From: a virus | UHGV virus genome: UHGV-0071757 | DNA: 38,572 bases | Strand: one strand, 5' to 3' | In this document: piece after piece, positions 21,017-38,572 of the stretch | How positions within the stretch are numbered: the first letter of the stretch is position 1 | Layout of the letters: every line of letters begins with the position of its first letter | Notes under the pieces: model-generated | Database searches by the model: none | What the model was told of the DNA's origin: nothing | Seen by the model: the letters and a program-made list of their open reading frames with translations, nothing else | Translations under genes and position numbers: made by a program

Positions 21017-21062
21017 ATTCGTAATGCGAAGGTCGTAGGTTCGACTCCTATTATCGGCACCA
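21017..21062 (+). other. att site: 3' 46 nt of a tRNA-Thr(CGU) (thrW-type) gene, partial, not a functional tRNA
   Basis: attcgtaatgcgaaggtcgtaggttcgactcctattatcggcacca has anticodon loop CGT, T-arm and acceptor 3' strand plus CCA. The 5' acceptor strand needed for a complete tRNA is absent upstream. Confidence 0.8.
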
Positions 21063-21567
21063 TTCTAATGTCTCCCCAAGTCTACTCAAGTATTTAAAAA
21101 CCTCTTATAATCCGCATGTTAGCGCCCCTTTTAGTCTTTTGACGTCTACTTAAGTACCCCAAAATCTACAGTCAATTGGGGGTACTTTTGGGGGTATTTG
21201 CTGTTCGGTTTAGTGGAGGTACCCCCAAGTGAAACTCAATGCCCGTCAAATAGACACTGCCAAGCCAAAAGAGAAGGCTTACAAGCTGGCTGATGGTGGT
21301 GGTCTGTATCTCCTGGTAAAACCTAGTGGAGGAAAATATTGGCGCTTCAAGTATCGTGTAGCTGGTAAAGAGAAGCTGTTAGCACTAGGTGTGTATCCTG
21401 AAGTTACCTTGGCTGATGCTCGTGCAAAACGTGAAGAAGCTAAAAGGGGTATCGCTGGGGGTATCGATCCGATGGAAGCGAAACGAGAGGAAAAGATTGC
21501 CCGGGAAACGCAGTTAAACAACACCTTCAAAGATATTGCCCTTGAGTGGCACAGCAGCAAATTAAAA
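21047..21567 (+). repeat. direct repeat copy A (att core + int promoter + first ~112 codons of int)
   Basis: About 90% identical by eye to 38013-38519. Contains GGGGGTACTTTTGGGGGTAT-type motifs. Confidence 0.85.
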
Positions 21568-22443
21568 AAATGGTCTGCTGGTTATGCTTCAGACATCCTC
21601 GAAGCCTTCAACAAAGATGTGTTCCCTTACATTGGCAAAAAACCAATCGCCGAAATCAAACCACTTGAACTGCTGAATGTGCTGCGGCGCATCGAGGGGC
21701 GCGGTGCTACCGAAAAAGCCAAAAAAGTGAGGCAGCGATGCGGGGAAGTTTTCCGCTATGCAATTGTCACTGGACGTGCTGAGTATAACCCTGCACCGGA
21801 TCTCACCAGCGCGATGCAAGGTCATGAATCTAATCATTATCCTTTCCTCACAGCCAAAGAATTACCTGATTTTTTCAAGGCATTGTCCAGTTACTCAGGA
21901 AGTGCATTGGTTGTTATGGCGGCTCGTCTACTGATTATCACCGGTTTGCGGACTGGCGAACTGCGCGGTGCATTATGGGATGAAATCGATCTCAACAAGG
22001 CTATCTGGGAGATACCTGCTTCACGGATGAAAATGCGTCGCCCTCATGTGGTGCCTTTGTCTAAGCAGGCTCTTTCGCTTATTGGGCAGATTAAAGAATT
22101 AACTGGCAATTATCCGCTTATGTTTCCCGGCCGTAATGATCCAAGGAAAACAATGAGCGAGGCTAGCATAAACCAAGTATTTAAACGCATCGGCTATAAC
22201 GGAAAGGTTACTGGTCATGGATTCCGGCACACCATGAGCACCATTTTGCATGAGCAGGGCTATAACACCGCGTGGATAGAGACACAGCTTGCACACGTCG
22301 ATAAAAACTCAATTCGTGGCACATACAACCATGCGCAATATCTGGATGGTCGCCGGGAGATGCTCCAGTGGTATGCCGACTATATGGATTCGCTCGAGCA
22401 TGGCGGTAACGTGGTGCATGGCAAGTTCGGAAAATGTGGATGA
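21229..22443 (+). CDS. int: P4-family tyrosine integrase
   Basis: 404 aa, GTG start. N-terminal arm-binding-type domain (GGGLYLLVKPSGGKYWRFKYR) and C-terminal catalytic residues (HGFRHT ... RGTYNHAQY). Directly downstream of the tRNA fragment. Confidence 0.9.
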   Translation: MKLNARQIDTAKPKEKAYKLADGGGLYLLVKPSGGKYWRFKYRVAGKEKLLALGVYPEVTLADARAKREEAKRGIAGGIDPMEAKREEKIARETQLNNTFKDIALEWHSSKLKKWSAGYASDILEAFNKDVFPYIGKKPIAEIKPLELLNVLRRIEGRGATEKAKKVRQRCGEVFRYAIVTGRAEYNPAPDLTSAMQGHESNHYPFLTAKELPDFFKALSSYSGSALVVMAARLLIITGLRTGELRGALWDEIDLNKAIWEIPASRMKMRRPHVVPLSKQALSLIGQIKELTGNYPLMFPGRNDPRKTMSEASINQVFKRIGYNGKVTGHGFRHTMSTILHEQGYNTAWIETQLAHVDKNSIRGTYNHAQYLDGRREMLQWYADYMDSLEHGGNVVHGKFGKCG

Positions 22444-22565
22444 CTGGTTGCGTATACAGTAGTAGACTTTGAGCGACGAAAGAAAAGGCTGTGTCTAGGG
22501 TCGCTCCCGAAAATCCGTACACCTCGACGGACTGGTACAGCCACTACAGTAGAGGACGCTGAGGT

Positions 22566-23369
22566 GTGCGTATGATTGATATTCATGCCGAATTAAACGA
22601 ATACAAAAAAGATTTTATTTCTTTACGTGAATTTCTTGAGGTCGTGCTTAAGGTCGCTGGTGATGATTATGATGTTTCAGATGTCATAACTTGGATACTC
22701 AGGAGAATAAGCGGAGAACATATCCGCCTGTACACAGTAAATGAATTTAAGCTGTTGGAATCTTTTTGTAACCCGTATCGGGATGAATTTGATTATGATG
22801 TTCTTTATAGAAATCTGAATGCGGTTCGGAAACGTGGTTGTTTACCTGGTGAGAGGGATGAAAATGGTTTTCTGGTGTCCGGTTATTGGGAAGATCCCGA
22901 ATTTGAGAACATTGGATTTATAAGGGGTGAAATTTTCGCAATTTTTCCCGATGTCCTTGACGCGTTAACGAAGCTGGAAGGCGCTAACTCTTCTGAAAAT
23001 GACGAGGCACAAGGACGCGATATTGAAAAGAAAGAGTTGCGTACAGAGGATGATTTATTATCCCAAATCGCAATGCTGGAAAAAGAAAACGCAGAGTTAA
23101 GGGCAAGGATAGAGCAGTTAGAGCAAGAGCGCCCGATACACTTATATAAATACTGGGATAAAGACCCATTAGCTAAGGCTATTGAGATTAGAAACAGAGA
23201 GTGGGCCAATTACGATCCAGAAAATGATTTTGCCACCAGGGGAAATCAAGAAGCGATAACCAGGGAGCTTAAGCAGTGGGGGGCAAGTAATGCACTTGCA
23301 ACGCTCATAGAGAGGACTGCCTGCCCTATTAACCGAGACAACAGCCAAAAGAACGCAAAGCCGGATTAA
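22566..23369 (+). CDS. hypothetical protein with coiled-coil segment
   Basis: 267-aa ORF (ATG at 22572 is better placed after GAGGTG). Coiled-coil LLSQIAMLEKENAELRARIEQLEQE. No recognisable catalytic motif. Confidence 0.55.
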   Translation: MRMIDIHAELNEYKKDFISLREFLEVVLKVAGDDYDVSDVITWILRRISGEHIRLYTVNEFKLLESFCNPYRDEFDYDVLYRNLNAVRKRGCLPGERDENGFLVSGYWEDPEFENIGFIRGEIFAIFPDVLDALTKLEGANSSENDEAQGRDIEKKELRTEDDLLSQIAMLEKENAELRARIEQLEQERPIHLYKYWDKDPLAKAIEIRNREWANYDPENDFATRGNQEAITRELKQWGASNALATLIERTACPINRDNSQKNAKPD

Positions 23370-23383
23370 CGCACCATACCGCA

Positions 23384-23530
23384 TACCCTGAGGGTGATTT
23401 ACTGTTACCCTGAGGGTATTTTTTTATCTTCCCCGTCAATTTTACCATCACCCTTAGGGTAGATTTCCTCCCGATTACCATCACCCTTAGGGTTAATTTC
23501 CTTCCGGTAACCATTAGGCCTGAGGGTATG
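23384..23530. repeat. five copies of ACCCT(G/T)AGGGT-type motif upstream of alpA
   Basis: Copies at about 23384, 23406, 23450, 23483 and 23517 in the intergenic region. Likely protein-binding sites. Confidence 0.6.
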
Positions 23531-23596
23531 AAAATATTCGTTATTTCTGTGCCAGGATTACCTCGTCAAATTGAGTAGACGTTATGAGGTAAATAT

Positions 23597-23794
23597 ATGT
23601 CAAATACGCTTATTCGTTTAACAGAAGTTCAGCGTAGAACTGGATATAGCAAGGCATGGATTTATCGCCTTATGGGGCAAGGTAAATTTCCTGCATCAGT
23701 TAAAATTGGCTCGCGAGCTATTGCTTTCGTTGAGAGTGAAATTGACGAGTGGATTAATCAGCGTATTGCGGAATCACGCGGAACAGCTACCTGA
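23597..23794 (+). CDS. alpA: AlpA-family transcriptional regulator (excisionase-like HTH)
   Basis: 65 aa. LTEVQRRTGYSKAWIYRLMGQGKFPASVKIGSRAIAFVESEIDEWI is the AlpA/Vis-type signature. SD GAGGT upstream. Confidence 0.8.
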   Translation: MSNTLIRLTEVQRRTGYSKAWIYRLMGQGKFPASVKIGSRAIAFVESEIDEWINQRIAESRGTAT

Positions 23795-23871
23795 TTAAAT
23801 GGCTACGGGGCTATTGCCCCCAGCTATCCACCAGCAAATAAAAGTAACTTAATTCGATAGCAGGAGTTTTT

Positions 23872-24672
23872 ATGAAATTTCCAAAAACGCCCGTACAGGG
23901 GCGGGGCTTCGTTCGGCCTGAAAACCAGAATCTGCAAAATTTCGGCGAAATTATCCCGATTATTTCCGGCGTTATTGGCGGGAGTGAAACCACTATTGTT
24001 AGCGCCAGAGCGTTACATAAGGCGTTAGGTGTAGGGCGCGTTTTCCGTTCGTGGATCAAGGGGCGCATTGAAGAATACGGGTTCACGGAAGGCGTGGATT
24101 ATGAGGTTGTTGAATATTTGAGCCGACCCGATCCGGTGAGCGCAAAATCTCGCCAGCAAACCGCTCTTGAGTACATCATCACAGTGAACATGGCGAAAGA
24201 ACTGGCGATGGTCGAACGTACCGAACAGGGCCGCGCCGTTCGCCAGTACTTTATCAAATGCGAGGAGGAGCTACACAAGGTAGCGCCAGTGCGTTCCGCA
24301 GCGTTACGCCGGGAACTGAAAGCCCGTATCTCCGTTGCCAGCTACTTTAAGCCGATGTGTGCCGCGCTGGAGGCGTACCGGGCTGAACTGGGTAAAAACA
24401 CACTCCAGCACCACTACACCACGGAAGCCAATATGCTGGCGCGTATCGTGCTGGGTGGCATGACTGCAAAACAGTGGACGCAGGCGAACGGCATCACAGG
24501 CGAACCACGCGACCACATGAGCACGTTGCAGCTTGAGCACCTTTCTTACCTTGAGCAGAGCAATATCACGCTGATTGAGTTAGGCCTGGACTACCACCAG
24601 CGGAAAGCTGAATTAATTCGTCTTTCGCAGCGTTGGTTAGCCCGTCGCATGGAGGAAAACAGCCATGTGTAA
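23872..24672 (+). CDS. AntA-like antirepressor-domain protein
   Basis: 266 aa. Motif ARALHKALGVGRVFRSWIKGRIEEYGFTEGVDYEV resembles the AntA/AntB N-terminal domain as I recall it. Confidence 0.55.
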   Translation: MKFPKTPVQGRGFVRPENQNLQNFGEIIPIISGVIGGSETTIVSARALHKALGVGRVFRSWIKGRIEEYGFTEGVDYEVVEYLSRPDPVSAKSRQQTALEYIITVNMAKELAMVERTEQGRAVRQYFIKCEEELHKVAPVRSAALRRELKARISVASYFKPMCAALEAYRAELGKNTLQHHYTTEANMLARIVLGGMTAKQWTQANGITGEPRDHMSTLQLEHLSYLEQSNITLIELGLDYHQRKAELIRLSQRWLARRMEENSHV

Positions 24673-25344
24673 CGCTCTGACCGTTACAAAAAGAGAAAGC
24701 GCCCCGTTGCCGGAGCGCCTTTGTGAACGAATAGCCTACTGCGCCATATTGCTTACTGTCTACGAGGCAGATTATAGCGTTGTGGTCGCACAGAGTGAAG
24801 GCGCTGATCACCGTTACTACAGCACGCCAGAAATGCAGAATATTTTGCTGCAAAATGTCGTTGGTCACGCTGTCCGGAAAGCAAAAAATTTTGCTGGTGG
24901 CGCGACTGATGCGATTTTGTCAGGTCGCAAGGTGATGATCAATCTGATGTCTAATTTCGTTCTGGATAAAACAAAGGCGACCGCAGAGGGCCACCAGTGG
25001 GAAAGCTACACACTTGAACACATCGCCAACAATGCCAGATTTGCGGCTGGTGGGCAATGTGATCAGTGTGTTGGCTTGCTGGTGGGCTATTCCTGCTCTT
25101 TAACATTGCCATGCCGCGATGTTTTCCAGGTATGCGACCCCATTTTTGTGCGCCTGTACTCTTTAAGGAATTTCTCAAGGATAAACGCACAGGGCGCGAA
25201 TCTGTCTGACTCATATTCGTACGTTATCTTTCTGCGCTGTCTTTTCCGTGCCGGTGATGGTGTATTGGTCGATTCTTTGTTGGTCATTCTGTGTACCTGT
25301 AAAGCAATGCGCCGGAGTTCCTCACACCACGGCGATGATAGTTA

Positions 25345-25650
25345 TTATTCTGATTCTTTGGCCTTGCGGCGCTGGAGTTCTTCACGTGCGACGGTGACGA
25401 GCTGCCCGATCTCCTCGACAGCTTTGACTCCGATTTTTTCCACCTGCGCCAGTGCATTGAGCGAAGAAACCAGGGGATTTTCTCCGCTTCCTTCTGCCTG
25501 GCGGCGGGCGATCTCACCACGCATGGCGGTTACTATGAATCCGGCGTTGCTTTCGCCGTCCAGTTTTACGGATTCCATGCCTTCAAAAGCATCATGTGGG
25601 ATACGAATTGAAATCTGTTTTGATTTGTCGTTGATAGTGTTTTTTGCCAT
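25345..25650 (-). CDS. putative ribbon-helix-helix transcriptional repressor
   Basis: Start taken at the ATG with SD TAGGAGA 7 nt upstream (MAKNTINDKSKQISIRIPHDAFEGMESVKL...). Beta-strand/helix pattern typical of RHH, helical C-terminus. Divergent from the downstream operon. Confidence 0.6.
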   Translation of the reverse strand: MAKNTINDKSKQISIRIPHDAFEGMESVKLDGESNAGFIVTAMRGEIARRQAEGSGENPLVSSLNALAQVEKIGVKAVEEIGQLVTVAREELQRRKAKESE

Positions 25651-25672
25651 GTGCATTCTCCTAAACAAAAGA

Positions 25673-25748
25673 TGTGATTCAGTATACACAAAAAAGAATC
25701 ACAAAAAATACTTGACCTGTGATTCAGTTAAATTTAATTTAAATCACA
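25673..25748. promoter_or_regulatory. two palindromic operators (TGTGATTCAG-N-GAATCACA) in a divergent promoter region
   Basis: O1 25673-25702 and O2 25719-25748, with a TTGACC -35-like hexamer between them. Located between the RHH gene and the 25838 operon. Confidence 0.55.
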
Positions 25749-25837
25749 CCTCAGTAAGAGGATATAAACGACAACGCCCCGAACTGTTTGCGGCAGTAGC
25801 GGGGCGTCTAACCAAACCGTTAAATGAGGTAACGATT

Positions 25838-26203
25838 ATGGCTGGGGCACAGCATACCCAAACTCACCCTAAATTTATATACACCTTCTTGGCGGTGCAC
25901 CGTGATTGCATGGCTGACGGTAAAAACACTGTTCATGTAGCCGCCGATACGCTGGTTGATGCCTGCGAGATGCTCAATGACATGGGCTATATCTCGGCAA
26001 CATGGAAAGGGCGCGAAGAAAACACGTTGTTTATTCAGAAATGCGAAAACAATTTTATCTGGCGTTTTATCGCCCTGAGTACGGCACAACCGCGCGTGAT
26101 TCACATCGAGGCCACCAGCGAACAGGAAGCACGCCAGCAATCTCCTGATGGCTGCGTGATGGTATTCGCTGCCCGTATTCGCCAGGAGGTGGAGCATGTG
26201 TAA
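25838..26203 (+). CDS. hypothetical protein (first gene of replication/regulatory operon)
   Basis: ATG 25838 with GAGG SD 8 nt upstream, 121 aa. It is the in-frame 3' part of the 512-aa ORF in the track. Confidence 0.55.
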   Translation: MAGAQHTQTHPKFIYTFLAVHRDCMADGKNTVHVAADTLVDACEMLNDMGYISATWKGREENTLFIQKCENNFIWRFIALSTAQPRVIHIEATSEQEARQQSPDGCVMVFAARIRQEVEHV

Positions 26204-26420
26204 TGCAACATGGCCTGATGCAGCGGTAGACGCTATCAAAACGCTGATGGATTCACTTATTGAGATTTCTGCTATCGCTGGTGTGGCGCATAAACACGCA
26301 GCCAGAGAATCAGAATGCATCTCCCATTATTTAGCATTTGTGCAGCTGAAAGCCGATCAGGCACTGGATAAGGCCGGAAAAATTATCATGGCTGATGTAC
26401 AGGAGGTGCACCATGCATAA
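26196..26420 (+). CDS. hypothetical small protein
   Basis: 74 aa. Start overlaps the upstream stop (ATGTGTAA). Confidence 0.45.
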   Translation: MCNATWPDAAVDAIKTLMDSLIEISAIAGVAHKHAARESECISHYLAFVQLKADQALDKAGKIIMADVQEVHHA

Positions 26421-26778
26421 CCTGTCAATTTCTGACCTTAACAGCATTCAGTTTGACGAGATATTTTCCGGGCAGCTACTGGTCAACGTGGAGAATGGAC
26501 GCGTGGTAAGTAATTATCACCTGCCGGATGGTGCAATTGCCGGAAGCGTTGAAGCATTGCTGGAACTGGCGGAACGTGCGCGACTGATTAAGCCGTCAAC
26601 GTGCCATCACGATGATGATCTGCATTTTACCGGGTGTATGGTGAGTCACTACGAAAACGGCGTTGAAGTATCCTGCGAACGTCTGCGTGATGATTGCTGT
26701 TTCGGCACACTGCCGGAATTTATCGAATTGCTGACCAGTTGCGGTTATCAGGTCATTCAGGGGGGTAAACATGCGTGA
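26413..26778 (+). CDS. hypothetical protein
   Basis: ATG 26413 with AGGAGG 7 nt upstream. Overlaps the previous stop (ATGCATAA). Confidence 0.55.
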   Translation: MHNLSISDLNSIQFDEIFSGQLLVNVENGRVVSNYHLPDGAIAGSVEALLELAERARLIKPSTCHHDDDLHFTGCMVSHYENGVEVSCERLRDDCCFGTLPEFIELLTSCGYQVIQGGKHA

Positions 26779-27004
26779 TGATCGTTTTAATTCCCTGAAA
26801 CAGGAGTTTGATGGCGCACCGGAAGATACATCGGGCGCATTGTTGAGCATTGCTGACATGATGAAAGCTGCATATTTTCTTATCAATACCATTGGCTACA
26901 AGTCAGAGGGTGAAATGATTCTTAGTATTGCGTCGGACTATGCTGAATATGTGGCAGAGACGCGTTACAGAAGAAAATCTCTGGAGGATGTAAGCCATGC
27001 ATAA
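26771..27004 (+). CDS. hypothetical small protein
   Basis: 77 aa. Start overlaps the upstream stop, suggesting translational coupling. Confidence 0.5.
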   Translation: MRDDRFNSLKQEFDGAPEDTSGALLSIADMMKAAYFLINTIGYKSEGEMILSIASDYAEYVAETRYRRKSLEDVSHA

Positions 27005-27197
27005 TCATGAAGCGCATGTACCCGTAGTGCTTAATGTGCCAGATGATTTCACCGGACGCGTGCTGGTTTACCTTGATAAAGAAAAAGTGAAATCACAATG
27101 CCGACTGAAAAGTAATGAGATTGTGGGTTCTCCTGAATTTTTTTCTGAACTCTGTATTCGTGCAGAAATAAAACCGGAACTGCTGACAGGAAAATAA
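26997..27197 (+). CDS. hypothetical small protein
   Basis: 66 aa. Start overlaps the upstream stop (ATGCATAA). Confidence 0.45.
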   Translation: MHNHEAHVPVVLNVPDDFTGRVLVYLDKEKVKSQCRLKSNEIVGSPEFFSELCIRAEIKPELLTGK

Positions 27198-27201
27198 AAC
27201 C

Positions 27202-27492
27202 ATGAAAAGGAAAAATTCTGGCTTTACTGCCAGCGGTCTCTCTCGGCCTGAAATCAGACACGGAGATATTTACCGCGACACCAGACGTGGGGGACGAGTG
27301 GTTATTCGTCACGTTACGCCAGGCAATATCACCTACCGCCGTGAGGCTTACGAATATGACTGCGTAATGCCGCGCCGTCAGTTTGAGCGTGATTTTATTC
27401 TGGTGGAAAACAAACAACAGGCAGTGGCGAGACGTGCAGCCACGAATATTAAAAAAATCCGGGCAATGTTGGTTGCGGGAGGTAAGAAGTGA
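27202..27492 (+). CDS. small basic protein, possibly DUF4222-like
   Basis: 96 aa. RGGRVVIRHVTPGNITYRREAYEYDCVMPRRQFERDFILV resembles small proteins found upstream of primases in P4-like islands (recall, low confidence). Confidence 0.5.
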   Translation: MKRKNSGFTASGLSRPEIRHGDIYRDTRRGGRVVIRHVTPGNITYRREAYEYDCVMPRRQFERDFILVENKQQAVARRAATNIKKIRAMLVAGGKK

Positions 27493-29294
27493 AAAACGCA
27501 CCGAATTTAAAATATCAGCCGAAGGATAAATTCACCGAGGTAATCATTTTTGCCGGGACGGATGCTTACGCCCATGCTCAACACTGGATTGAAAGCGAAG
27601 GACGAAAACACGGCGATAACGTGCCTCCTGTTTACCTGGGGCCAAAGCAACTGGCAGACCTGGCGAATATCCGCATTGTCGACGATGAACGCCGCTTTGC
27701 GCGTGTCTATCTCGCGGGGGAGATAGAGCCAATCCAGATCAATGCTATTGCTGAAAAGCTGGCGCTGGCTGGTGTACAGGACGCGAAATTATACAAAGGT
27801 ATCACCGACCGGGAGCCGGAAAACTGGCGCGACTACCTGCAACGGATCCGCGAACAGGCAGAGAGTGGGGAAGTTTCAGCGATGAAATTAGCCACAAAAA
27901 ATATTGACCTATCCAGGCCAGCACTAAATCAGATGGGAGCCAGCCAGAGAGGGGAAGTGTTACTTGAATATTATGGAAGAGCACTGGCTATAAATGATGA
28001 TTCTGATGTAGTTCACCATTACAACGGAATTGTCTGGGTGCCTGTATCTGATAAGGAACTCCAGCGGTCTATGGCGAAGATTTTTATTGATGCTGGAATC
28101 AGTTATTCGCAAAACGCCATTAAATTTGCCGTAGACACAATGAAATTGAGCCTGCCTGTTATGGGCGGGGCAGACAGGAATCTTATTGGATTCAGTAACG
28201 GGGTATTTGATACCCGGACGGGAAATTTTCGGGAGCATAACAAAAATGACTGGTTGTTAAATGCCAGTGAATTACCGTTCAGCCCACCAGCAGAGGGGGA
28301 AACGCTGGCAACACATGCGCCGAATTTCTGGAAGTGGCTGCGTCGTTCGGTGGCAGATAATGATCGTAAAGCTGATCGCGTACTGGCGGCATTATTCATG
28401 GTGCTGGCGAACCGGTACGACTGGCAGTTATTCCTTGAGGTAACAGGCCCAGGCGGAAGCGGTAAAAGTGTGATGGCTGAGATTTGTACCATGCTGGCGG
28501 GTAAGGCCAACACAGTATCGGCAAGCATGAAGGCTCTGGAAGACGCAAGGGAACGCGCGTTAGTAGTTGGCTTTTCGCTGATTATCATGCCGGATATGAC
28601 TCGCTACGCTGGCGATGGTGCAGGAATTAAGGCAATTACTGGCGGCGACAAGGTGGCAATTGATCCGAAACATAAAGCCCCCTACTCCACACGTATTCCG
28701 GCAGTAGTGCTTGCGGTAAACAATAACGCCATGTCATTCAGTGACCGAAGCGGGGGGATCTCGCGTCGTAGGGTGATATTTAATTTCTCTGAGGTCGTAC
28801 CGGAGAACGAACGCGATCCCATGCTGGCGGAAAAGATAGAAGGCGAACTGGCGGTAGTGATTCGCCATTTGCTAACACGATTTACCGACCAGGACGAAGC
28901 TAAAAGACTACTTTATGAGCAGCAAAAATCAGAAGAAGCGCTGTTGATAAAGCGCGAAGGTGATTCACTGGTGGACTTTTGCGGCTATCTGATGTCGTTG
29001 GTTAAATGTGAAGGAATGATGGTGGGCAATGCGGAAATAGTGCCATTTAGCCCGAGGCGATACCTGTATCATGCTTATTTAGCCTATATGTCAGCGCATG
29101 GCCTGGGAAAACCAGTATCACTGACACGCTTTGGTACTGATATGCCAGGAGCTATGGCGGAATACGGAAAGGAGTATAAGCGGGCTAAATGCACTAAAGG
29201 CCCGGATAAAGGGCGAGTGATAACAAATGTTCTGTTAGATGATGATGCTGATGGCTGGTTGCCAGCAGCTACAGGGATTAACGACAGAACATAA
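27489..29294 (+). CDS. primase/helicase-like replication protein (D5-N/P4-alpha C-terminal type, P-loop NTPase)
   Basis: 601 aa. Walker A TGPGGSGKS preceded by a region resembling D5_N/primase C-terminal domains. Followed immediately by the iteron array. Confidence 0.75.
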   Translation: MKNAPNLKYQPKDKFTEVIIFAGTDAYAHAQHWIESEGRKHGDNVPPVYLGPKQLADLANIRIVDDERRFARVYLAGEIEPIQINAIAEKLALAGVQDAKLYKGITDREPENWRDYLQRIREQAESGEVSAMKLATKNIDLSRPALNQMGASQRGEVLLEYYGRALAINDDSDVVHHYNGIVWVPVSDKELQRSMAKIFIDAGISYSQNAIKFAVDTMKLSLPVMGGADRNLIGFSNGVFDTRTGNFREHNKNDWLLNASELPFSPPAEGETLATHAPNFWKWLRRSVADNDRKADRVLAALFMVLANRYDWQLFLEVTGPGGSGKSVMAEICTMLAGKANTVSASMKALEDARERALVVGFSLIIMPDMTRYAGDGAGIKAITGGDKVAIDPKHKAPYSTRIPAVVLAVNNNAMSFSDRSGGISRRRVIFNFSEVVPENERDPMLAEKIEGELAVVIRHLLTRFTDQDEAKRLLYEQQKSEEALLIKREGDSLVDFCGYLMSLVKCEGMMVGNAEIVPFSPRRYLYHAYLAYMSAHGLGKPVSLTRFGTDMPGAMAEYGKEYKRAKCTKGPDKGRVITNVLLDDDADGWLPAATGINDRT

Positions 29295-29319
29295 TACGAA
29301 ATTTATAAGCTGAAACGTA

Positions 29320-29660: not shown

Positions 29661-29665
29661 TAACG

Positions 29666-30492: not shown

Positions 30493-30626
30493 CAGAGGAT
30501 GGGATTCTCTTGGTTTTTTGTTGATGCTTTCTGAGGAAATCTACTACGTTGCTGAGCAGATGAATATTCAATTGCATCTGGGTTCCTGATAAGATTAATC
30601 TGAATATTTTCATTTGGAATAGGGAT

Positions 30627-31769: not shown

Positions 31770-31780
31770 ACAATCCGTGC

Positions 31781-31806
31781 AAAGCCCCTTAGTAAGGGGC
31801 TTTTAT
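31781..31806 (+). terminator. rho-independent terminator
   Basis: agcccctt/aaggggct stem followed by TTTT. Confidence 0.7.
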
Positions 31807-31833
31807 ATATTAATGTTCAACGTGGGGGATTAG

Positions 31834-32157
31834 ATGAAAGATAATCTAGCAAAACTAATTGAAAATACTTTAAAAGATATTCTATTAGCTAATGCTGCTC
31901 TAACATTCATTTTTGCAATACCAATGGCTATTATCAGTAGGCATGGGATGGGCATCACAATCTGGTTTATAACTGTGCTCATTGCACCTGCTCTGTGTGC
32001 AGTAGGTGCATGGCTTGTATCTCGAACATCCGGCCATGCTGAGGAGTTCTTTCATCGTCGGTGGGCTAAGCGAATTTATGTTTTTTATACTCTTGCGGCT
32101 GCCGAGTTTTTGCTTGTGTACTCAATCGCGCAAATAATGAAAAATCTGATGAAATAA
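31834..32157 (+). CDS. small inner-membrane protein
   Basis: 107 aa with 2-3 predicted TM segments (LLANAALTFIFAIPMAII, ITIWFITVLIAPALCAVGAWLV). SD GGGGGA upstream. Confidence 0.55.
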   Translation: MKDNLAKLIENTLKDILLANAALTFIFAIPMAIISRHGMGITIWFITVLIAPALCAVGAWLVSRTSGHAEEFFHRRWAKRIYVFYTLAAAEFLLVYSIAQIMKNLMK

Positions 32158-32445
32158 TTAACAAGTTATTATCATGGAGCTTGTGGCTGTTAACCTGCAG
32201 TGAGGCGACAATCGTGTATTTATAAAAACTTCCCCTTTTCACTCCCCGCAGCTTCTTCTGCTATTGCCTTTATGTTTGCATGCACCAACATCTGCCATAC
32301 CTTTGCAGAAAAATCAGAGCATTCAGTGCCGAAGGTTGGTTTATTGATGCTTTTCGTTTCATTTATTGCAATTGTCTCTGGTATCATTTCAATTTGTGCA
32401 ATAATTGCAATAATTGCAATTATTGTCATTCAGAAGGGATCATCA

Positions 32446-32612
32446 TGAAAAATCACGGAGTAAAGCCAGTTTTACTTTCCCGGAGGCAGATCGAAGCCCT
32501 GCAACGCATCCAGGACGAAGAGCGTCAGAAATCTGTGCTTGGTGTGGCACCGTCGATTCATGTTATCGCTCGGCAACTGATGGATAAGGCACTTAAAGAG
32601 GTGAGACTGTGA
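32446..32612 (+). CDS. hypothetical small protein (possible DNA-binding/antitoxin-like)
   Basis: Taken from the internal ATG 32446 of the 32280-32612 ORF, with AAGGG upstream, giving 55 aa. Basic helical segment SRRQIEALQRIQDEERQ. Confidence 0.4.
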
Positions 32613-32881
32613 AATTAAATATCAGAGTGGATAAACGCCAGCTATGGCAGAAAAAAGAGAACAGCGAGGCATTCAGGGCGTTGCTGGTGGAAAATCTTCA
32701 GCATCGGTTCAGTGGAGAGTTGCCTGATGCTCTAGGGAAGAAACTGGAATCCCTGACGGTGGAAATTGGCGATTATGGCTTTGTTGATGTTGAAAGCACG
32801 ACTGCCAACACAGAAATCGTAAAACAGGTCGTCAATGATGTAATGAAAACCACGCTTAGCCAGCCATCCTGGCGCAACTGA
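32609..32881 (+). CDS. hypothetical protein
   Basis: 90 aa, GTG start overlapping the upstream stop (GTGA). Followed by a hairpin. Confidence 0.5.
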   Translation: MKLNIRVDKRQLWQKKENSEAFRALLVENLQHRFSGELPDALGKKLESLTVEIGDYGFVDVESTTANTEIVKQVVNDVMKTTLSQPSWRN

Positions 32882-32886
32882 ATCAG

Positions 32887-32912
32887 TAAGGGGCGGTTAT
32901 TGCCCCTTTCCT
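32887..32912 (+). terminator. putative terminator hairpin
   Basis: aaggggc/gcccctt stem. The U-tract is weak (tttcc). Confidence 0.45.
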
Positions 32913-32962
32913 CCATACCCACAACGCATTCCCTTTCCGCATGAAATTATTTTTTATCGTAT

Positions 32963-33508
32963 ATGCATGAGGTGAGCTACATGTTGATGAGTAAAGCCGA
33001 ATACGCCAAATACAAAGGCGTAAGCCGCCAGACAGTTTACGACTGGCTCGAGAAAGGCGAAGTGGTCATGTCCGGTAAAAAAATTGATGTGGAAGCGACA
33101 GAGCAGCGGAACAGCCCACCAGCACAGGGGAAAGACACCATTTCTGAAATGTGGCCAGAAAGAACGCTGGAAATGACATGGGGCGAGTTCTGGAAAGCAG
33201 TTAAGGCCAGAGACGGTAAAATTCCTGCGCCAGTAACGGACGAGGGCATACAGCAGCGTGTGCTGTATGCAGCCGGGGAATTAGGCTGGGAAGTGCACTT
33301 TCTTGATGATGGTGCTATCTGCCTTGAGGATGATGAAGGGCAGCATTACTTTGAAAAATACAATTTGCGAGGTAATGCCAGGCTGGCAATTCGTATGCTG
33401 CGTTGCGAACTCTGCTATGTTGCAGGTGATTATCCCGATGAACCGGAATCATGGAGTGAAGCCGGGTTAAACGCCCTGGCTGAGTGGGAAAAATCAGACC
33501 ATCAATGA
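32963..33508 (+). CDS. helix-turn-helix DNA-binding protein
   Basis: 181 aa (a likelier start is ATG 32981 after GAGG). N-terminal HTH SKAEYAKYKGVSRQTVYDWLEKGEV. Ends 3 nt before the repeat region. Confidence 0.65.
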   Translation: MHEVSYMLMSKAEYAKYKGVSRQTVYDWLEKGEVVMSGKKIDVEATEQRNSPPAQGKDTISEMWPERTLEMTWGEFWKAVKARDGKIPAPVTDEGIQQRVLYAAGELGWEVHFLDDGAICLEDDEGQHYFEKYNLRGNARLAIRMLRCELCYVAGDYPDEPESWSEAGLNALAEWEKSDHQ

Positions 33509-33510
33509 CA

Positions 33511-33810
33511 TCAAAAAGTGTCAAGTTGAGCAGCTTGCCAGCTTGCCAGCTTGCCAGCTTGCCAGCTTGCCAGCTTGCCAGCTTGCCAGGTTGACACTTT
33601 ACACTCTGAACGCGAAAAAGTGTCAACCTCGCTGTAAGCCCCGCAATTACTGGGTTTGTGCCAGATTTACCACGTCAAAAAGCCGAAAAAACCGCGAAAA
33701 ATGTCAAGTTGCCATGCTTAGAAATGCTAAGGTTTTTCGCGAAAAAGTGTCAAGTGTGTCAACCTGCGATATTAAGATTTATTAAGGTCTTAAGCCGGAA
33801 AGTGTCAACC
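33511..33810. promoter_or_regulatory. array of dispersed (A)AAGTGTCAA(G/C) motifs (about 7 copies, one inverted)
   Basis: Motif copies near 33517, 33590(rc), 33619, 33700 (variant ATGTCAAG), 33746, 33755 and 33801, several with a CGCGAAAAA prefix. Confidence 0.6.
33531..33586. repeat. (CAGCTTGC)x7 octanucleotide tandem repeat
   Basis: Counted directly: 7 perfect 8-nt units (56 nt), flanked by inverted half-sites AGTGTCAA (33516-33523) and TTGACACT (33591-33598). Confidence 0.95.
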
Positions 33811-33929
33811 AGCCCCCTAAGATTTCCTAAGGTGTGATTGGACGTGCTGTACCCTTCTTGTCGCAATGTGGATGAATGACTATAGTGCTGGTAGCTTTGA
33901 CAGCAGAATCAGATTACTGAAGGAAATGT

Positions 33930-34514
33930 GTGATGAGTTTTTTTAGTCTTTATGGGAAAGAACTATTTTCTTTTTTTATAACGATTTTAACATGGATACT
34001 GAATAACAGATTTAAAAGCAAGGCAAAGTTATCCTATGGTTATCAGCATGGATTTACTTTTCTTCTCAATGAACCCTTACGGAATGCCAATGGTGAGGTA
34101 ATATCTAATTCACAGTTGGTGTATACACGATCTATTATTCTTGTTAATGAAGGGCGAGAAAGTGCTACTAATATCTCATTGGTTTTTAACTATAAGCCAA
34201 TGCATATTAATTTTTGGCCTGTCCACCATTTTGAAGAAAATATTGAACAGGATGGTCGCTATATTATCAAGTTTGAAAGCCTTGCACCTGGTGAGTCTAT
34301 TCAATGTGAAATATTATCAATAAATAGAGAAGTTCCAAGTATTCTATCGATAAGATCTAAAGAGTGTGTGGCTGAGCCAGTGAATATCGTGATGCAAAAA
34401 TCGATTAGTAATATTGCCTTACGTTGCTATCAATTATTAATACTTCTTGGAACTGGCACATTAACATATTTAATTATCGTTATTCTGCAATGGTTAGTCA
34501 CTAAAACGGGATAA
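33930..34514 (+). CDS. AT-rich membrane-anchored protein, unknown function
   Basis: 194 aa. N-terminal TM (LFSFFITILTWIL) and C-terminal TM (LLILLGTGTLTYLIIVILQWLV). Markedly AT-rich codon usage by eye. Confidence 0.6.
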   Translation: MMSFFSLYGKELFSFFITILTWILNNRFKSKAKLSYGYQHGFTFLLNEPLRNANGEVISNSQLVYTRSIILVNEGRESATNISLVFNYKPMHINFWPVHHFEENIEQDGRYIIKFESLAPGESIQCEILSINREVPSILSIRSKECVAEPVNIVMQKSISNIALRCYQLLILLGTGTLTYLIIVILQWLVTKTG

Positions 34515-34536
34515 TCCATTGTATTGAACTTATTAA

Positions 34537-34746
34537 TTGGATATGAGTGCTGATAGGAAACCTATGACCATCACCGAAGCCGATATGCTGGAGATGATCC
34601 GCAGCATTGCCGGAATCAAACAACCAGCAAGCAAAATTAACAGGTGTTCAGCGCCTGTTTCCGTTGTGCTGCAACAGGAACGCCACCAGCGGCGGGAAAA
34701 CGAAAAGGCGTACCAATGGACGAAGCCAAACAAGTTACGGCGTTAA
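34537..34746 (+). CDS. hypothetical small protein (uncertain)
   Basis: 69-aa ORF followed by a good terminator. No motif. Confidence 0.35.
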   Translation: MDMSADRKPMTITEADMLEMIRSIAGIKQPASKINRCSAPVSVVLQQERHQRRENEKAYQWTKPNKLRR

Positions 34747-34752
34747 TTAGGG

Positions 34753-34778
34753 ATGCGGGCTGGGATAGCCCGCATTTT
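34753..34778 (+). terminator. rho-independent terminator (possibly bidirectional)
   Basis: atgcgggct/agcccgcat stem followed by TTTTG. Lies between convergent ORFs. Confidence 0.6.
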
Positions 34779-34780
34779 GC

Positions 34781-35038
34781 TCACAGCTTGTTATAAATTT
34801 TTCCAGCGAAGTCATGAACCGCCTGAGGAATATCCGACGGCGTACCTAGCATTGTTGGCGCATCGGAAACAAAGAACATGATCGCTTCTTTGATTTCTTT
34901 GAAAGATGGGGTAGGGGTAATGCGCTTGAGATTTGAAACAGCCCGTCGGAACTCCGCCGTATCCATTGGATGCCTGCTAAACCACGTTGGACTAGAAGCC
35001 CAACATTTTACTGCTTCTTTCACCTTAGTGTTCATCAT
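34781..35038 (-). CDS. hypothetical small protein
   Basis: 85 aa, tandem ATG start with SD AAGGAAAA upstream on the minus strand. Confidence 0.5.
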   Translation of the reverse strand: MMNTKVKEAVKCWASSPTWFSRHPMDTAEFRRAVSNLKRITPTPSFKEIKEAIMFFVSDAPTMLGTPSDIPQAVHDFAGKIYNKL

Positions 35039-35640
35039 TTTTCCTTTTGCTTATTACCATACAAAGCATGTGGAAAGAGAAGATTAACATGGAAAATATG
35101 GGGTTGGTGAGCAAATGGTACTGGTAGCCCGTCGACATCTATCAGCATGATGATGTGAGGCCGTATCAGTGGCGGAAACCGAACAGGCTGCGACGGTGAG
35201 CGGGGCGTTATAGTAAGCCAACAGCCAAGCCAAACATTAAGCCTAAGGGTAGGGCTTTTTTGTGGCTGGTGGCGTAATGCCAACATTTTTACATGATGTT
35301 TTGAGGTATTATCTGCATGTTCGTGGTGAGGAACCACCAGAACTGATGAGCTTTTGTTTATGCATGTACTGCATGAAAACTGTCCTATAAAGTGGGGGGT
35401 AGGTGTGCTGAGGAGAACATTGTGAGCTACGCCAAATTAAATTGTGTCGGGGGTGAACAAGTTTCTTGATAGGTGTCAGTAGGCACCTATAGTTATAGGC
35501 TTCTTCAATTTTGTGTGCACAATATTTTGTATTGATTGGGGATAGGGTTGCACGCAAAATTAAAAAATGTATATTTATTAACGTGTATTTGATAATTTTT
35601 AAATAAAATATTTCTCTATGTTTATCATAAAAGGTTTTTT

Positions 35641-37239
35641 ATGAGCGTGGCAATAAAAACAATGACACCAGTGTCATATTCTATAAAAGTTGATGCGATT
35701 AAGAAAAGATTGTCATATTTTAGTGATGTTTCTTTTTTGAGAAATTTTTATGAACACTTCCAAAAAGTAAGGGATGTCGAGGTGGGTATTGTTTCCAATT
35801 TCCCTTGGTGTTGCTATCTGGCAATGAAATGGAAGTTTTGCATGAAGGAAAAAAAGCCTGCAAAAGAAATGAGTAAAAATGATTTTGTTGATATTATCAA
35901 CTTAATCTATAACTTGCAACTAGAAGCATCTAATTTAATCGTTGATGATAAAGTTATGCTAAGCCTTAGACGAATGGTGATAAATCAGTTGCTTTATCAA
36001 TCAACTGATAAATTTAATGCCAATTCATTAACAAGACAGTATATTTGGTATTGCTTGAATGATGAATCATATTATAAAGATAAGTTTTTAGAATGTACTG
36101 GTTTACATTTGGAAAACTATTACAAAATGGCATGTTATTTTACCGCTATTTCATGTATTAATCCTGATATAGAATCAGAGGTTATTCCATTTAAACACTT
36201 GATAATAAACTTGGTTCCGATATTTGGTCCGGAACAAGTGAAAAGATTTTTGGAATTAACATGCTTAAAAATTGATGGTGTGAGAGATTTTATTGCCCCA
36301 TATAAATTGGATAAAAACATTACCGCTGAGTATTATGAAGATACACCATTCCTCAGTAAACCAATGTTTTTAGATGGCGATGGTGTAGTGATATTATGCA
36401 AAAGAATCATGAAGTCAGGGTTTGTCAACCTAGTTCCAGAATTGTTCAAGCAGGTCTATAAGGAATCTTATAAAGAAAAATTTGGTAAGACGATGGAACT
36501 TTATATTTCTCGCTTTCTTGATAAGTACAATTATAACTTTAAGACTGAAAGGGAGGTTAAGAGGATTTATAGTGATAATGCAATAAAAAATTGCAAGTCC
36601 GTAGATTTTGTTATTTCAGAGGGAGATTCAATAGTTTATATTGACTCGAAGGCAATAGAGCCTGCAAAGTTCGTTAAAACATCTAATAATGCTCAGTTGC
36701 TAAAGGAAAGGTTGAATAAGAGTTTTATTAAAGGGATTTATCAAGGTCAGGAATGTGCTTTTAACTTAAATAAAATAGAGATGAGAAAACCATCTTCGAA
36801 AGATTCAATGTTAATTGTGGTGCATCGGGATCATCATATATCAAATGCAATGGTTGTGCAGGATTTTATTAACCCTGATTTATCAACTGAGTTATCTGAA
36901 AAATATCATAGTATCCCCATTGATCTAAAAAGAATTTACTATATAACAATTGATGAGTTCGAATTATTACTTATGATGTGTAAACAGAAAGAACTATCTA
37001 TTAATGAGTTTATTGATATGTGTGTGGAAAAAGATTCATTCCCTCATACTCAGAAGTCTAATCTAAGCATGCACATATATGAATTTGCACCAGAGGGTAT
37101 TGATGATGATCAATTGATTGTAAAAGGAAGAGACTTACTGATTGATGATGTTATTGAAAATATGAAAGAGAGTGCATCAAAATGGTCTGGGAAAGTTGAT
37201 ATGTATCTTAAAATAAAAGATTATATTTTTAATTGGTAA
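35641..37239 (+). CDS. orphan 532-aa protein, possible PD-(D/E)xK-like nuclease motif; candidate defence/accessory protein
   Basis: Long ORF with strongly AT-rich codon usage, its own AT-rich upstream region and a strong terminator. Segment SVDFVISEGDSIVYIDSKA fits a beta-hairpin D ... (D/E)xK pattern. No other recognisable motif. Confidence 0.7.
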   Translation: MSVAIKTMTPVSYSIKVDAIKKRLSYFSDVSFLRNFYEHFQKVRDVEVGIVSNFPWCCYLAMKWKFCMKEKKPAKEMSKNDFVDIINLIYNLQLEASNLIVDDKVMLSLRRMVINQLLYQSTDKFNANSLTRQYIWYCLNDESYYKDKFLECTGLHLENYYKMACYFTAISCINPDIESEVIPFKHLIINLVPIFGPEQVKRFLELTCLKIDGVRDFIAPYKLDKNITAEYYEDTPFLSKPMFLDGDGVVILCKRIMKSGFVNLVPELFKQVYKESYKEKFGKTMELYISRFLDKYNYNFKTEREVKRIYSDNAIKNCKSVDFVISEGDSIVYIDSKAIEPAKFVKTSNNAQLLKERLNKSFIKGIYQGQECAFNLNKIEMRKPSSKDSMLIVVHRDHHISNAMVVQDFINPDLSTELSEKYHSIPIDLKRIYYITIDEFELLLMMCKQKELSINEFIDMCVEKDSFPHTQKSNLSMHIYEFAPEGIDDDQLIVKGRDLLIDDVIENMKESASKWSGKVDMYLKIKDYIFNW

Positions 37240-37243
37240 TTAA

Positions 37244-37275
37244 GCAAGGGTGTTATTATCAACACCCTTGCTCAT
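37244..37275 (+). terminator. rho-independent terminator
   Basis: 11-bp stem gcaagggtgtt/aacacccttgc with a 6-nt loop. Confidence 0.65.
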
Positions 37276-38012
37276 AGTCTTACAATATTAAATGTTGTGT
37301 TTTTTATTTATATATTTTATTGCCCATCAAGCTATTAATTCATCTCGTTGTTTGAGATAGGTTGAGCATTTGTATTTTTTTATCAATTTTATCTGTATGA
37401 GCTTAAGCAGCTTCAATAATATCTGCGTTAAATTACGCTTCATTCAGAGACGTGCTTGCTATTGACATGTAATCCATGTGCAACAAGATTCCTGCCATAA
37501 CTTATGCGTTTCAGATCCGAATCATGGACTGCTTTAAGTCATTTTTGTAGGGAAAACATGTTCACATGTCAGCACTGATTTGTTTCATCATATCCACTAT
37601 CTCGAATTTCTGTGTCGATAGATGAATGCAGACGGAAATATGTGAATTTTGTGCACGCTCTGCTATTAAGCGAAAACGAGCGTGGATATATCAACTAATA
37701 ATTGCCCTCATTAACATAGGTGGTGGCGGGTATAATCTCTGTAACCCAGTTGTTCGTGACTACCCACCTCGTCAAATTTTCACACCCGCGAAATGAAAAA
37801 TACTTCACGCTAGTGGTTATCCTTGGGCATCCACCAGCCCTTCATCATTGCCTGCCGGTGAGGCTGAGGCTCGAAGAAAAAGAGTGCTAGATAGTCGATT
37901 TTTGCCTGGTTTGGGATAAGGGAAAATTTATTGGGGGTACTTTTGGGGGTATCTATAAAAATGAAATATGAAAATATCATTAAATATCAATGTATTTTTT
38001 GTTTATGTTTTG

Positions 38013-38029
38013 TTCCTATTATCGCACCA
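38013..38029 (+). other. second att core: 16 nt matching the tRNA-Thr 3' end (tcctattatcg-cacca)
   Basis: Matches 21047-21062 with a 1-nt deletion, then continues into the duplicated int promoter region. Confidence 0.75.
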
Positions 38030-38519
38030 TTCTAACGTCTCCCCAAGTCTACTCAAGTATTTAAAAACCTCTTATAATCAGTATATTAATGCCCCTTTTA
38101 GTCTTTTGACGTCTATTTAAGTACCCCAAACTCTACAAGCAATTGAGGGGATTTGCTGTTCAGTTTAGTGGAGATACCCCCAAGTGAAACTCAATGCCCG
38201 TCAAATAGACACTGCCAAGCCAAAAGAGAAGGCTTACAAGCTGGCTGATGGTGGTGGTCTGTATCTCCTGGTAAAACCTAGTGGAGGAAAATATTGGCGC
38301 TTCAAGTATCGTGTAGCTGGTAAAGAGAAGCTGTTAGCACTAGGTGTGTATCCTGAAGTTACCTTGGCTGATGCTCGTGCAAAACGTGAAGAAGCTAAAA
38401 GGGGTATCGCTGGGGGTATCGATCCGATGGAAGCGAAACGAGAGGAAAAGATTGCCCGGGAAACGCAGTTAAACAACACCTTCAAAGATATTGCCCTTGA
38501 GTGGCACAGTAACAAATTA
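38013..38519 (+). repeat. direct repeat copy B (att core + int promoter + int 5' end)
   Basis: Aligns by eye with 21047-21567, with a ~12-nt deletion in the GGGGTAC motif region and scattered mismatches. Confidence 0.85.
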
Positions 38520-38522
38520 TAA
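38184..38522 (+). pseudogene. truncated P4-family integrase (N-terminal 112 codons only)
   Basis: Identical to int residues 1-109, then diverges (HSNKL-stop) into unrelated AT-rich sequence. No catalytic domain. Confidence 0.8.
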
Positions 38523-38572
38523 TCACAATAATAGTGTATATAATTATACATTGTATGCTTGGTAATCATATA

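Follow-up and report, generated by a model that had tools for sequence, protein, structure and literature searches.

Organization of the thrW locus

The DNA analysed here (UHGV virus genome UHGV-0071757, 38,572 nt, hereafter the window) is the thrW locus of Escherichia coli, at which three elements were found in tandem, namely the late half of a P22-like prophage, an integrative island and the stub of a further island that carries vat. The element of main interest is the middle one, at positions 21046 to 38029, which measures 16,968 bp and was identified as an integrative island, of the type known as phage-inducible chromosomal islands (PICIs), and as a relative of EcCIMP1 (with a probability of about 0.85). 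A second and incomplete copy of its integrase gene (int) lies at its right-hand edge; this is very probably the truncated integrase of an older, fixed and non-mobile vat island of B2/extraintestinal pathogenic E. coli (ExPEC). In relatives, the order of the locus is proA, thrW, int, the remainder of the island, the stub, a MarR gene, vat, IS1 and yagU. The features that define the boundaries of the island and the second int copy are the following:

21017–21062, + strand: 46-nt copy of the 3' end of tRNA-Thr (thrW), identical to the last 46 nt of thrW of strain E1; attachment site attR of the prophage, with its last 17 nt forming the attL core of the island
21046–21062, + strand: attL core of the island, TCCTATTATC followed by GGCACCA
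21178–21226: candidate arm-type integrase sites of the P' arm, with GGGGGTAC at 21178, GGGGGTAT at 21190 and an inverted GGGGGTAC at 21219–21226
21229–22443, + strand: intact tyrosine integrase of 404 aa with Arm-DNA-bind_3, Phage_int_M and Phage_integrase domains (Pfam)
37933–37952, + strand: GGGGGTACTTTTGGGGGTAT, candidate arm-type sites of the P arm; the right core lies 62 nt downstream
38014–38522, + strand: left end of the decayed vat island, consisting of a P' arm and the first 112 codons of int (open reading frame (ORF) 38184–38522)
38241–38438, + strand: minimum gene-conversion tract (maximum 38175–38509)
38510–38572, + strand: AT-rich vat-island DNA past the truncation point, identical in strains K56-43-un and E1

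Attachment cores and the repeated left end

Pairwise alignment placed the left core, TCCTATTATCGGCACCA, at 21046–21062 (17 nt, TCCTATTATC with GGCACCA) and the right core at 38014–38029 (16 nt, TCCTATTATC with GCACCA), the latter having one G fewer and matching the left core at 16 of 17 nt. The 10 nt of TCCTATTATC are the published core of EcCIMP1 (PMC11773190), and the attR core of the window is identical to that of EcCIMP1. An earlier note on this DNA, made from the sequence alone, had described a satellite-like island of about 17 kb bounded by att repeats, with the core recurring at its right edge, and both the recurrence and the extent of the element (21046–38029, 16,968 bp) were borne out. 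Homology between the two ends starts at the cores and extends over 509 alignment columns (21046–21554 and 38014–38509), the start-to-start distance between the copies being 16,968 bp. These columns comprise 482 identical positions, 14 mismatches and 13 gap columns, so that the repeat of about 500 bp in the note was found to exist, at an identity of 94.7% and not the approximately 90% given there.

The differences are unevenly distributed. Columns 1–174, from the core to the start of int, hold all 14 mismatches and all 13 gap columns of the repeat, with 147 matches, and the gaps include a deletion of 12 nt from the right copy, while columns 175–509 (21220–21554 and 38175–38509) are identical at 335 of 335 positions. 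Beyond 21555 and 38510 the homology ends abruptly and the two sequences are unrelated. The same blocks were recovered by an independent repeat search (300 nt at 99% and 131 nt at 90%), and a perfect repeat of 335 nt makes a chance origin impossible. As the note had stated, the second int copy ends after 112 codons; its ORF (38184–38522) meets a stop 13 nt into unrelated AT-rich DNA.

The octamer GGGGGTAY was found nine times in the window (0.71 expected), with all but one of the copies at the ends of the island. Three of these, one of them inverted, are situated between attL and the start of int, which begins 167 nt past the attL core, and a further two, both direct, lie 62–81 nt before the attR core. 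The inverted copy (GGGGGTAC, 21219–21226) sits between the Shine-Dalgarno sequence (GGAGG) and the GTG start codon of int. The same layout was identified in EcCIMP1 and in the islands of strains 537-20 and K56-43-un, and it is that expected of arm-type sites for an integrase with an arm-binding domain, making these octamers candidate integrase-binding sites. A longer motif of 23 nt, ATTGGGGGTACTTTTGGGGGTAT, is present at 21175–21197 and at 37930–37952, the latter inside the island and upstream of the right core. It contains GGGGGTACTTTTGGGGGTAT, which the note had placed in both repeat copies. This holds for the left copy (21178–21197) and not for the right, in which the 12-nt deletion takes out GGGGGTACTTTTGGGGGTAT at the homologous place; the second perfect copy is that upstream of the right core (37933–37952).

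Gene content of the island

The genes and predicted elements between the two cores, other than the integrase and its sites, are listed below.

22488–22555, + strand: int-alpA RNA motif (Rfam RF02996, 45.5 bits against a gathering score of 35.8)
23597–23794, + strand: AlpA-family regulator, 65 aa (Pfam PF05930, 69.4 bits)
23872–24672, + strand: AntA/AntB-type anti-repressor, 266 aa (Pfam, PHROG)
25345–25689, − strand: YlcI/YnfO-family gene (NCBIfam NF041551, RefSeq annotation of relatives)
27202–27492, + strand: DUF4222 protein (Pfam)
27489–29294, + strand: D5_N/DUF5906/Pox_D5 primase-helicase, 601 aa (Pfam; PHROG DNA primase, E 1e-156)
29322–29655: putative origin of replication, an AT-rich stretch surrounded by eight GGTAGAC iterons, directly 3' of the primase gene
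29666–30208, + strand: ProQ/FinO-family protein (Pfam)
30205–30492, + strand: PerC-family regulator (Pfam)
30627–35038: accessory region with no or only weak family matches
32963–33508: 181-aa protein with an N-terminal helix-turn-helix (HTH), in the accessory region
35641–37239, + strand: GapS1-family anti-phage protein, 532 aa, on low-GC cargo DNA (NCBIfam NF047931, 440.7 bits against a cut-off of 320)

Gene content was compared with the PICI criteria of Fillol-Salom 2018 (PMC6092414) and with the core genes of SatelliteFinder. The integrase is situated at one end beside the att site, an AlpA gene lies downstream of int in the same orientation (with a predicted regulatory role), and the primase gene is adjacent to iterons. 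No gene for phage structural proteins or for lysis was recognised among the 26 ORFs of the island with Pfam, PHROGs or both, several of these ORFs being without any match. In size the island (16,968 bp) exceeds the approximately 12–15 kb of PICIs and is smaller than the verified PICI EcCIMP1 (19,963 bp). The island departs from the criterion of an att site that prophages never occupy, as the P22-like prophage immediately upstream uses the same tRNA 3' end. The satellite-like character proposed in the note is thus supported by int, AlpA, the primase-helicase, the iterons, the lack of structural genes and the resemblance of Int, AlpA and att to those of EcCIMP1.

The heptamer GGTAGAC was found nine times in the window (2.1 expected), eight of these within 29322–29655, and the cluster is considered a putative origin of replication. 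The int-alpA RNA motif is placed between int and the next ORF and has a conserved structure typical of such elements. This next region, between the motif and AlpA, contains a 267-aa ORF to which no function was assigned. Two tandem direct repeats of 33 nt (88% identical, 23442–23507) were observed 90 nt upstream of alpA and are a candidate operator or promoter element for helper-dependent induction of this gene.

Several small ORFs are located between AntA and the DUF4222 gene. A 512-aa ORF on the + strand (24665–26203) had no family matches and overlaps both the YlcI/YnfO gene and a small − strand gene that are annotated in relatives; it is probably spurious and not a gene. The accessory region encodes a 380-aa lipoprotein-like ORF (lipobox LTGC), small ORFs and a 194-aa ORF, in addition to the 181-aa HTH protein. 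The latter possesses weak N-terminal similarity to the small terminase subunit TerS (PHROG, E 2e-6), but assignment as a TerS was rejected, with no similarity found to the TerS of the neighbouring prophage or to any PDB structure. Just past its gene, an intergenic array of five AGTGTCAA motifs (33517–33808; six in the window, 1.45 expected) encloses an octamer variable-number tandem repeat, CAGCTTGC, present in seven copies (33531–33586), in two copies in 537-20 and in five in K56-43-un. This array could be a binding-site array or a packaging or regulatory site. The GC content of the GapS1 cargo DNA is 0.31–0.37. None of the cargo proteins had a significant match in PADLOC 2023, GapS1 being recognised by NCBIfam only.

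The core of the island, from alpA to perC, was present at a coverage of at least 80% in 92 of a collection of 5,426 complete genomes, which is the collection used throughout this study. Nothing island-like was found in the phage collection except for a 77%-identical primase in vB_KppS-Ant, a 16.5-kb 'induced prophage'.

Comparison with EcCIMP1 and other satellites

EcCIMP1 is a 19,963-bp PICI of E. coli MP1 that resides in tRNA-Thr between proA and yagU and is flanked by TCCTATTATC (PMC11773190). Its excision requires the P22-like helper phage Kapi1, its own integrase and the adjacent alpA, and it is transduced by Kapi1 at a low rate (Pick, Stadel and Raivio 2025, ISME J, PMC11773190). The island of the window shares with it an orthologous integrase (96.5% amino acid identity) and the same att in thrW between proA and yagU, together with TCCTATTATC, the attR core, the layout of the arm motifs and a vat island as neighbour. 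AlpA is 81% identical, AntA 59% and PerC 48%. Both elements also have DUF4222 and Icd-like genes, lack structural genes and fall within Type C of the PICI classes.

The remaining genes of the island had no match in EcCIMP1 by tblastn, this being the case for the primase and for all genes downstream of it except PerC. The island is shorter (17.0 kb versus 20.0 kb) and encodes a 601-aa D5_N/DUF5906 primase-helicase where EcCIMP1 has a TOPRIM-DUF927 protein. DNA-ejection and DUF2824-like genes and a second alpA are absent from it, and ProQ, the lipoprotein-like gene and GapS1 stand in place of the EcCIMP1 cargo. Furthermore, a P22-like prophage in tandem at the same tRNA occurs in the window only. 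The most conserved genes of EcCIMP1-like elements are the antirepressor, an Ash-family protein and the TOPRIM-DUF927 primase (PMC11773190), and only the first of these, AntA, is shared by the island (59%). The island is therefore a new member of a group that possesses the EcCIMP1 integration and regulation module, with another replication module and other cargo.

Strain MS8345 carries at the same site (1–3010 of the locus piece) an island with the same P-arm motif and attR core and a wholly different cargo, which consists of a DNA methyltransferase, a DUF262 protein and a HEPN-like nuclease. These differences in cargo beside a constant P arm and attR indicate that the Int/att module serves as a platform for varied defence cargo.

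PICIs of the EcCICFT073 and EcCIEDL933 type resemble the island in the order of int, alpA and replication genes, in an iteron origin beside the replication gene, in the lack of structural and lysis genes and, for some members, in PerC-family cargo (Fillol-Salom et al. 2018, PMC6092414). They differ in that the island has no lambda-type cos match or recognised packaging-interference genes and that its att is also used by prophages; EcCIMP1-type elements have been reported to be phylogenetically distant from them (PMC11773190). P4 and P4-like satellites resemble the island in that their integrase is of the P4 type and targets the 3' end of a tRNA, in having a gene of the AlpA family and a D5/P4-alpha-like helicase region, and in the placement of defence cargo near one end. 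Unlike P4, the island ORFs had no matches to psu, delta, sid or epsilon, nor to terminase genes (Pfam, PHROG), and no P2-type cos was found within three mismatches. The model for the C-terminus of the P4 primase (TIGR01613) scored 95.8 bits, below its cut-off of 108.7.

The second int copy as the stub of a vat island

In relatives, the second int copy is a pseudogene by RefSeq annotation, under the label 'Arm DNA-binding domain-containing protein, missing C-terminus'. Its homologous part consists of the P' arm and codons 1–109 of int. The P' arm differs from that of the island by 14 substitutions and by the 12-nt deletion that removes the arm motif, and the stub has neither arm sites nor a right-hand core. 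Its codons depart from those of the live int by 10 synonymous and 8 non-synonymous changes, R65P, R68L and P81L being among the latter.

The truncation junction and the last 63 nt of the window are the same as in K56-43-un and E1, where MarR (vatX) and vat come next. The stub and its following 50 nt form the left end of a MarR-vat-IS1 island at the same position and with the same junction in K56-43-un, E1, MP1, SCU-176 and MS8345, and in relatives with identical flanks the stub is followed by MarR, vat and IS1 up to yagU. In the window, the diagnostic feature of this left end is the truncated Arm-domain integrase by the thrW core, MarR and vat being placed from relatives, beyond the window. 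No intact integrase was found past the window in five relatives, so that this refuting outcome named in the note did not occur. At the MP1 locus, EcCIMP1 is likewise followed by a truncated 'Arm DNA-binding domain' pseudogene, MarR, vat, IS1 and yagU, and the neighbour of EcCIMP1 was described as an 'unclassified' island of approximately 7 kb with a MarR gene and four pseudogenes that does not excise (PMC11773190). The tandem architecture of island, truncated integrase and vat is thus already published for EcCIMP1 in 2025, and current concepts are unchanged by its finding here.

The stub was present in approximately 546 of the complete genomes at 96.8–97.1% identity. A query for the junction of thrW and stub was matched at 99% or more in 424 genomes, including CFT073, UTI89 and Nissle 1917 (among the matches listed, 2 were at 100% and the other 58 at 99.2%), and the matched feature covers both tRNA-Thr and the stub in Nissle 1917 and many others. 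Most carriers thus have the stub immediately beside an intact thrW and no island between the two. The occurrence of the stub beside thrW in hundreds of island-free genomes marks it as the left end of an older fixed element and not as a by-product of the island. The note had offered a decayed third element or a recombination scar; the former is upheld by the stub with its following MarR, vat and IS1 and by the island-free genomes, and the latter is not. The integrase of the vat island was presumably cut off by a deletion long ago. Two related elements would then have used one site in succession, which is why their homologous left ends now stand in direct repeat, and the puzzling half-integrase is explained as a remnant of the oldest layer at thrW.

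The vat island (VAT-PAI, a pathogenicity island) was reportedly described by Parreira and Gyles in 2003 (a reference listed in PMC7545054) at thrW of avian pathogenic (APEC) and uropathogenic (UPEC) E. coli. Only its first approximately 560 bp lie in the window, where the stub differs in carrying a conversion patch from the neighbouring int. Annotation pipelines should keep this stub apart from the island.

Probable gene conversion and possible loss of the island

In the stub of the window, 17 of the 17 sites that separate the stub of E1 and K56-43-un from the island int (columns 241–438) carry the island allele, while columns 1–174 and the junction from column 510 onward keep stub-type sequence. 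No other genome matched this stub over its full length at more than 97.1%, a ceiling that includes 56 records with two matching places, for example MP1 and K56-43-un, which have both an island-type int and a stub. The simplest explanation of the base pattern is that a tract of 198–335 bp was copied from the live int into the stub by gene conversion in this lineage. The patch appears to be new, since the allele was found in none of the approximately 546 stub-bearing genomes. A mosaic stub derived from an intact integrase or from another genome with the window allele was also considered, and the search for such a source yielded nothing above 96.8% full-length identity. Homologous integration of the Campbell type through the stub predicts a hybrid left copy and was rejected, the left copy being purely island-type.

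The conversion patch results in 335 bp of uninterrupted identity between the copies. Given the substrate requirements of RecA, this length should raise the chance of island deletion. The note had suggested that RecA could delete the whole island through the direct repeats. Recombination between the copies is indicated by the conversion patch, but the product of such a deletion, represented by a synthetic sequence in which the left copy is joined to the truncation junction, was matched over its full length at no more than 93% in the genome collection. The deletion is only plausible, with the 335-bp perfect repeat as a plausible hotspot for island loss. A natural variant that lacks the 17-kb segment, as the note had envisaged, was found in strain E1, where the island is missing and the prophage, the same as in the window, runs straight into the 46-nt att, the stub and vat. 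The E1 junction is pure stub-type sequence from the core onward, which fits an unoccupied or precisely excised site but does not fit a RecA crossover within the repeat. No prophage intervenes between thrW and the island in strains 537-20 and K56-43-un, and in 537-20, which has no stub, the island abuts the native flank.

Two other accounts of the repeat bear on these conclusions. Were the right copy a local duplication or recombination scar from the left end of the island itself, and not a separate element, the 100% identity of the copies over 335 bp would follow. This is very improbable: a stub with the same truncation point and MarR-vat DNA occurs directly beside thrW in hundreds of island-free genomes, where 17 sites and the P' arm set it apart from the island int, and only the middle of the window stub is island-like, both flanks being stub-type. 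The perfect identity could in principle instead be an artefact of assembly or polishing, with the true stub having the ordinary sequence, which would count against the conversion patch. Repeats are prone to consensus errors and the allele is unique among the stub-bearing genomes. However, with 17 differences between the ordinary stub and int within 198 bp, reads can be mapped unambiguously, and the island-type block is clean with stub-type flanks on both sides, as a conversion tract would give. An artefact is accordingly held to be improbable, if less so than a duplication, and the stub of the vat island with a conversion patch is retained as the preferred explanation.

Deletions at attR

The sequence past TCCTATTATC at the right end was compared with GGCACCA in 15 islands that have the arm motif. 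None of the 15 was intact, with losses of 1, 4, 6, 7, 9 or 17 nt that start right after TCCTATTATC:

1 nt lost (GCACCA), n = 7: window, MP1, MS8345, EC36, T309.Ta3, APEC E123 and EC23-1020
4 nt lost (CCA), n = 3: NGF1, 537-20 and SCU-104
4 nt lost and a second small deletion just after CC, n = 3: UPEC132, YP3 and ECAMP047
exactly 7 nt lost, n = 1: K56-43-un
17 nt lost, n = 1: ABU 83972

These variants recur on three different chromosomal flanks, and secondary changes cluster 7 nt further on, after CCA. GGCACCA is kept in every attL core examined (window, MP1, 537-20 and K56-43-un) and at the unoccupied site of E1. The deletion series appears to be new and is a small addition to what is known of these elements. 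A tentative and rather doubtful interpretation is that the deletions are scars made by the integrase at two cleavage points, which would mark a 7-bp crossover region, GGCACCA, equal to the last 7 nt of thrW, in place of the published TCCTATTATC. If true, satellites would become progressively locked into the chromosome, and recombination with the dead int stub would be a second route to island loss or fixation. It is also possible that the attP of the islands carries a single G, with the crossover 3' of it.

In SCU-176 (2442–2516 of the locus piece) and VTB96815v only, thrW itself was observed with a single G (TCCTATTATCGCACCA), as a 75-nt tRNA gene that passes without interval into the stub. 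This arrangement resembles what excision from a G-deficient attR would produce on the chromosome, and it leaves the tRNA gene with a damaged acceptor stem.

Proposed life cycle and alternative explanation

The P4-type tyrosine integrase of the island would have inserted it at the 3' end of the thrW sequence. A helper phage, for which P22-like phages such as the adjacent prophage are plausible candidates, would on its induction switch on alpA, after which Int and AlpA may recombine attL and attR. The resulting circle would replicate from the GGTAGAC iterons with the D5-type primase-helicase and helper capsids would take up the DNA, by which GapS1, PerC and ProQ would reach new hosts. For each of these steps, from helper-induced alpA expression through Int/AlpA excision and iteron replication to packaging by a P22-like helper, the scheme is inferred from EcCIMP1 and the PICIs of Gram-negative bacteria. 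In this capacity the island is a candidate vehicle for GapS1, PerC and ProQ between ExPEC and APEC strains. The locus shows how mobile elements build up at one tRNA gene, here a prophage of helper type, an island of satellite type that carries an anti-phage gene, and the fossil of a toxin island.

The same DNA could be an integrative defence and regulatory island that has lost, or has never had, the nature of a helper-dependent satellite and that spreads by homologous recombination or passive lateral transduction. Several observations weigh against the satellite reading in this respect. No hijacking or packaging genes and no cos site were found, with no packaging or capsid-redirecting module identified by Pfam or PHROG and no match in the island to lambda cosN or to the cos of P2/P4. 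The published SatelliteFinder scheme would rank it no higher than a 'Type C' PICI, and defective or unrelated elements also fall into that class. All 15 attR junctions have deletions next to the core, and the missing G in the attR of the window might reduce excision if that position falls within the crossover region. Even for EcCIMP1 the rate of transduction is very low, and helper dependence does not transfer automatically from it to an element whose replication module and most of whose cargo are unrelated. Furthermore, the order of events at the locus had to be reconstructed, because the arrangement of prophage, island and stub seen in the window is in no complete genome of the collection. 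Lateral transduction in particular would be favoured by the position of the prophage terS and terL, which lie on the + strand approximately 19 kb upstream with a packaging direction toward the island; P22 packs unidirectionally from a pac site in terS in headfuls of approximately 44 kb and performs lateral transduction (PMC8575938). By analogy, a first headful of approximately 44 kb packaged in situ from near 2.3 kb could take in the island from end to end, together with the beginning of the vat island, and this would apply with or without satellite functions of the island. Against a non-satellite origin stand the intact Int, AlpA, primase-helicase, iterons and both clusters of arm sites. The attR is identical to that of EcCIMP1, which excises and transfers, so that the missing G alone is no argument against mobility. 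Many different cargoes are found at this site with one and the same Int/att system, an argument for ongoing site-specific turnover, and lateral transduction is compatible with a satellite and could act in addition to it. A non-satellite island is on balance unlikely, although its chance is appreciable, and a PICI-type island remains the preferred interpretation.

The upstream prophage

The DNA upstream of the island was identified as the late half of a P22-like prophage of the CUS-3/HK620/Sf6 type, which lies outside the island as its neighbour:

1–21016, + strand: late half of the prophage (PHROG matches, phage matches)
266–724: Rz
2047–2487, + strand: TerS (PHROG)
2484–3896, + strand: TerL (PHROG)
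3890–6025: portal protein
6935–8206: coat protein
16799–19744: tailspike
19897–20639: neuO-like acetyltransferase locus

Ejection proteins are also encoded in this half (PHROG). Phage matches placed it closest to HK620, CUS-3 and Sf6, with late genes in common with Kapi1, and over 21.1 kb it has 99.9% identity with the E1 prophage. No complete tRNA was found in the window with ARAGORN, thrW being represented by the 46-nt fragment only. This fragment, being the 3' end of thrW with prophage DNA upstream of it, is the attR of the prophage, and the intact thrW must lie at the other end of the prophage, outside the window, as in E1. The 46-nt identity to the 3' end of thrW and the P22-type late genes correspond to integration at thrW of the P22 and CUS-3 type. 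The prophage differs from the island in being a separate element with its own longer att identity, and is both its neighbour and its candidate helper.

In the acetyltransferase locus, an ATG and 13 copies of the heptad AAGACTC were observed upstream of a hexapeptide acetyltransferase body in another reading frame, and only the C-terminal 111 aa form an ORF. We take this locus to resemble the phase-variable neuO capsule O-acetyltransferase locus of CUS-3-type prophages. As 13 repeats are not a multiple of three, the neuO-like gene appears to be switched off.

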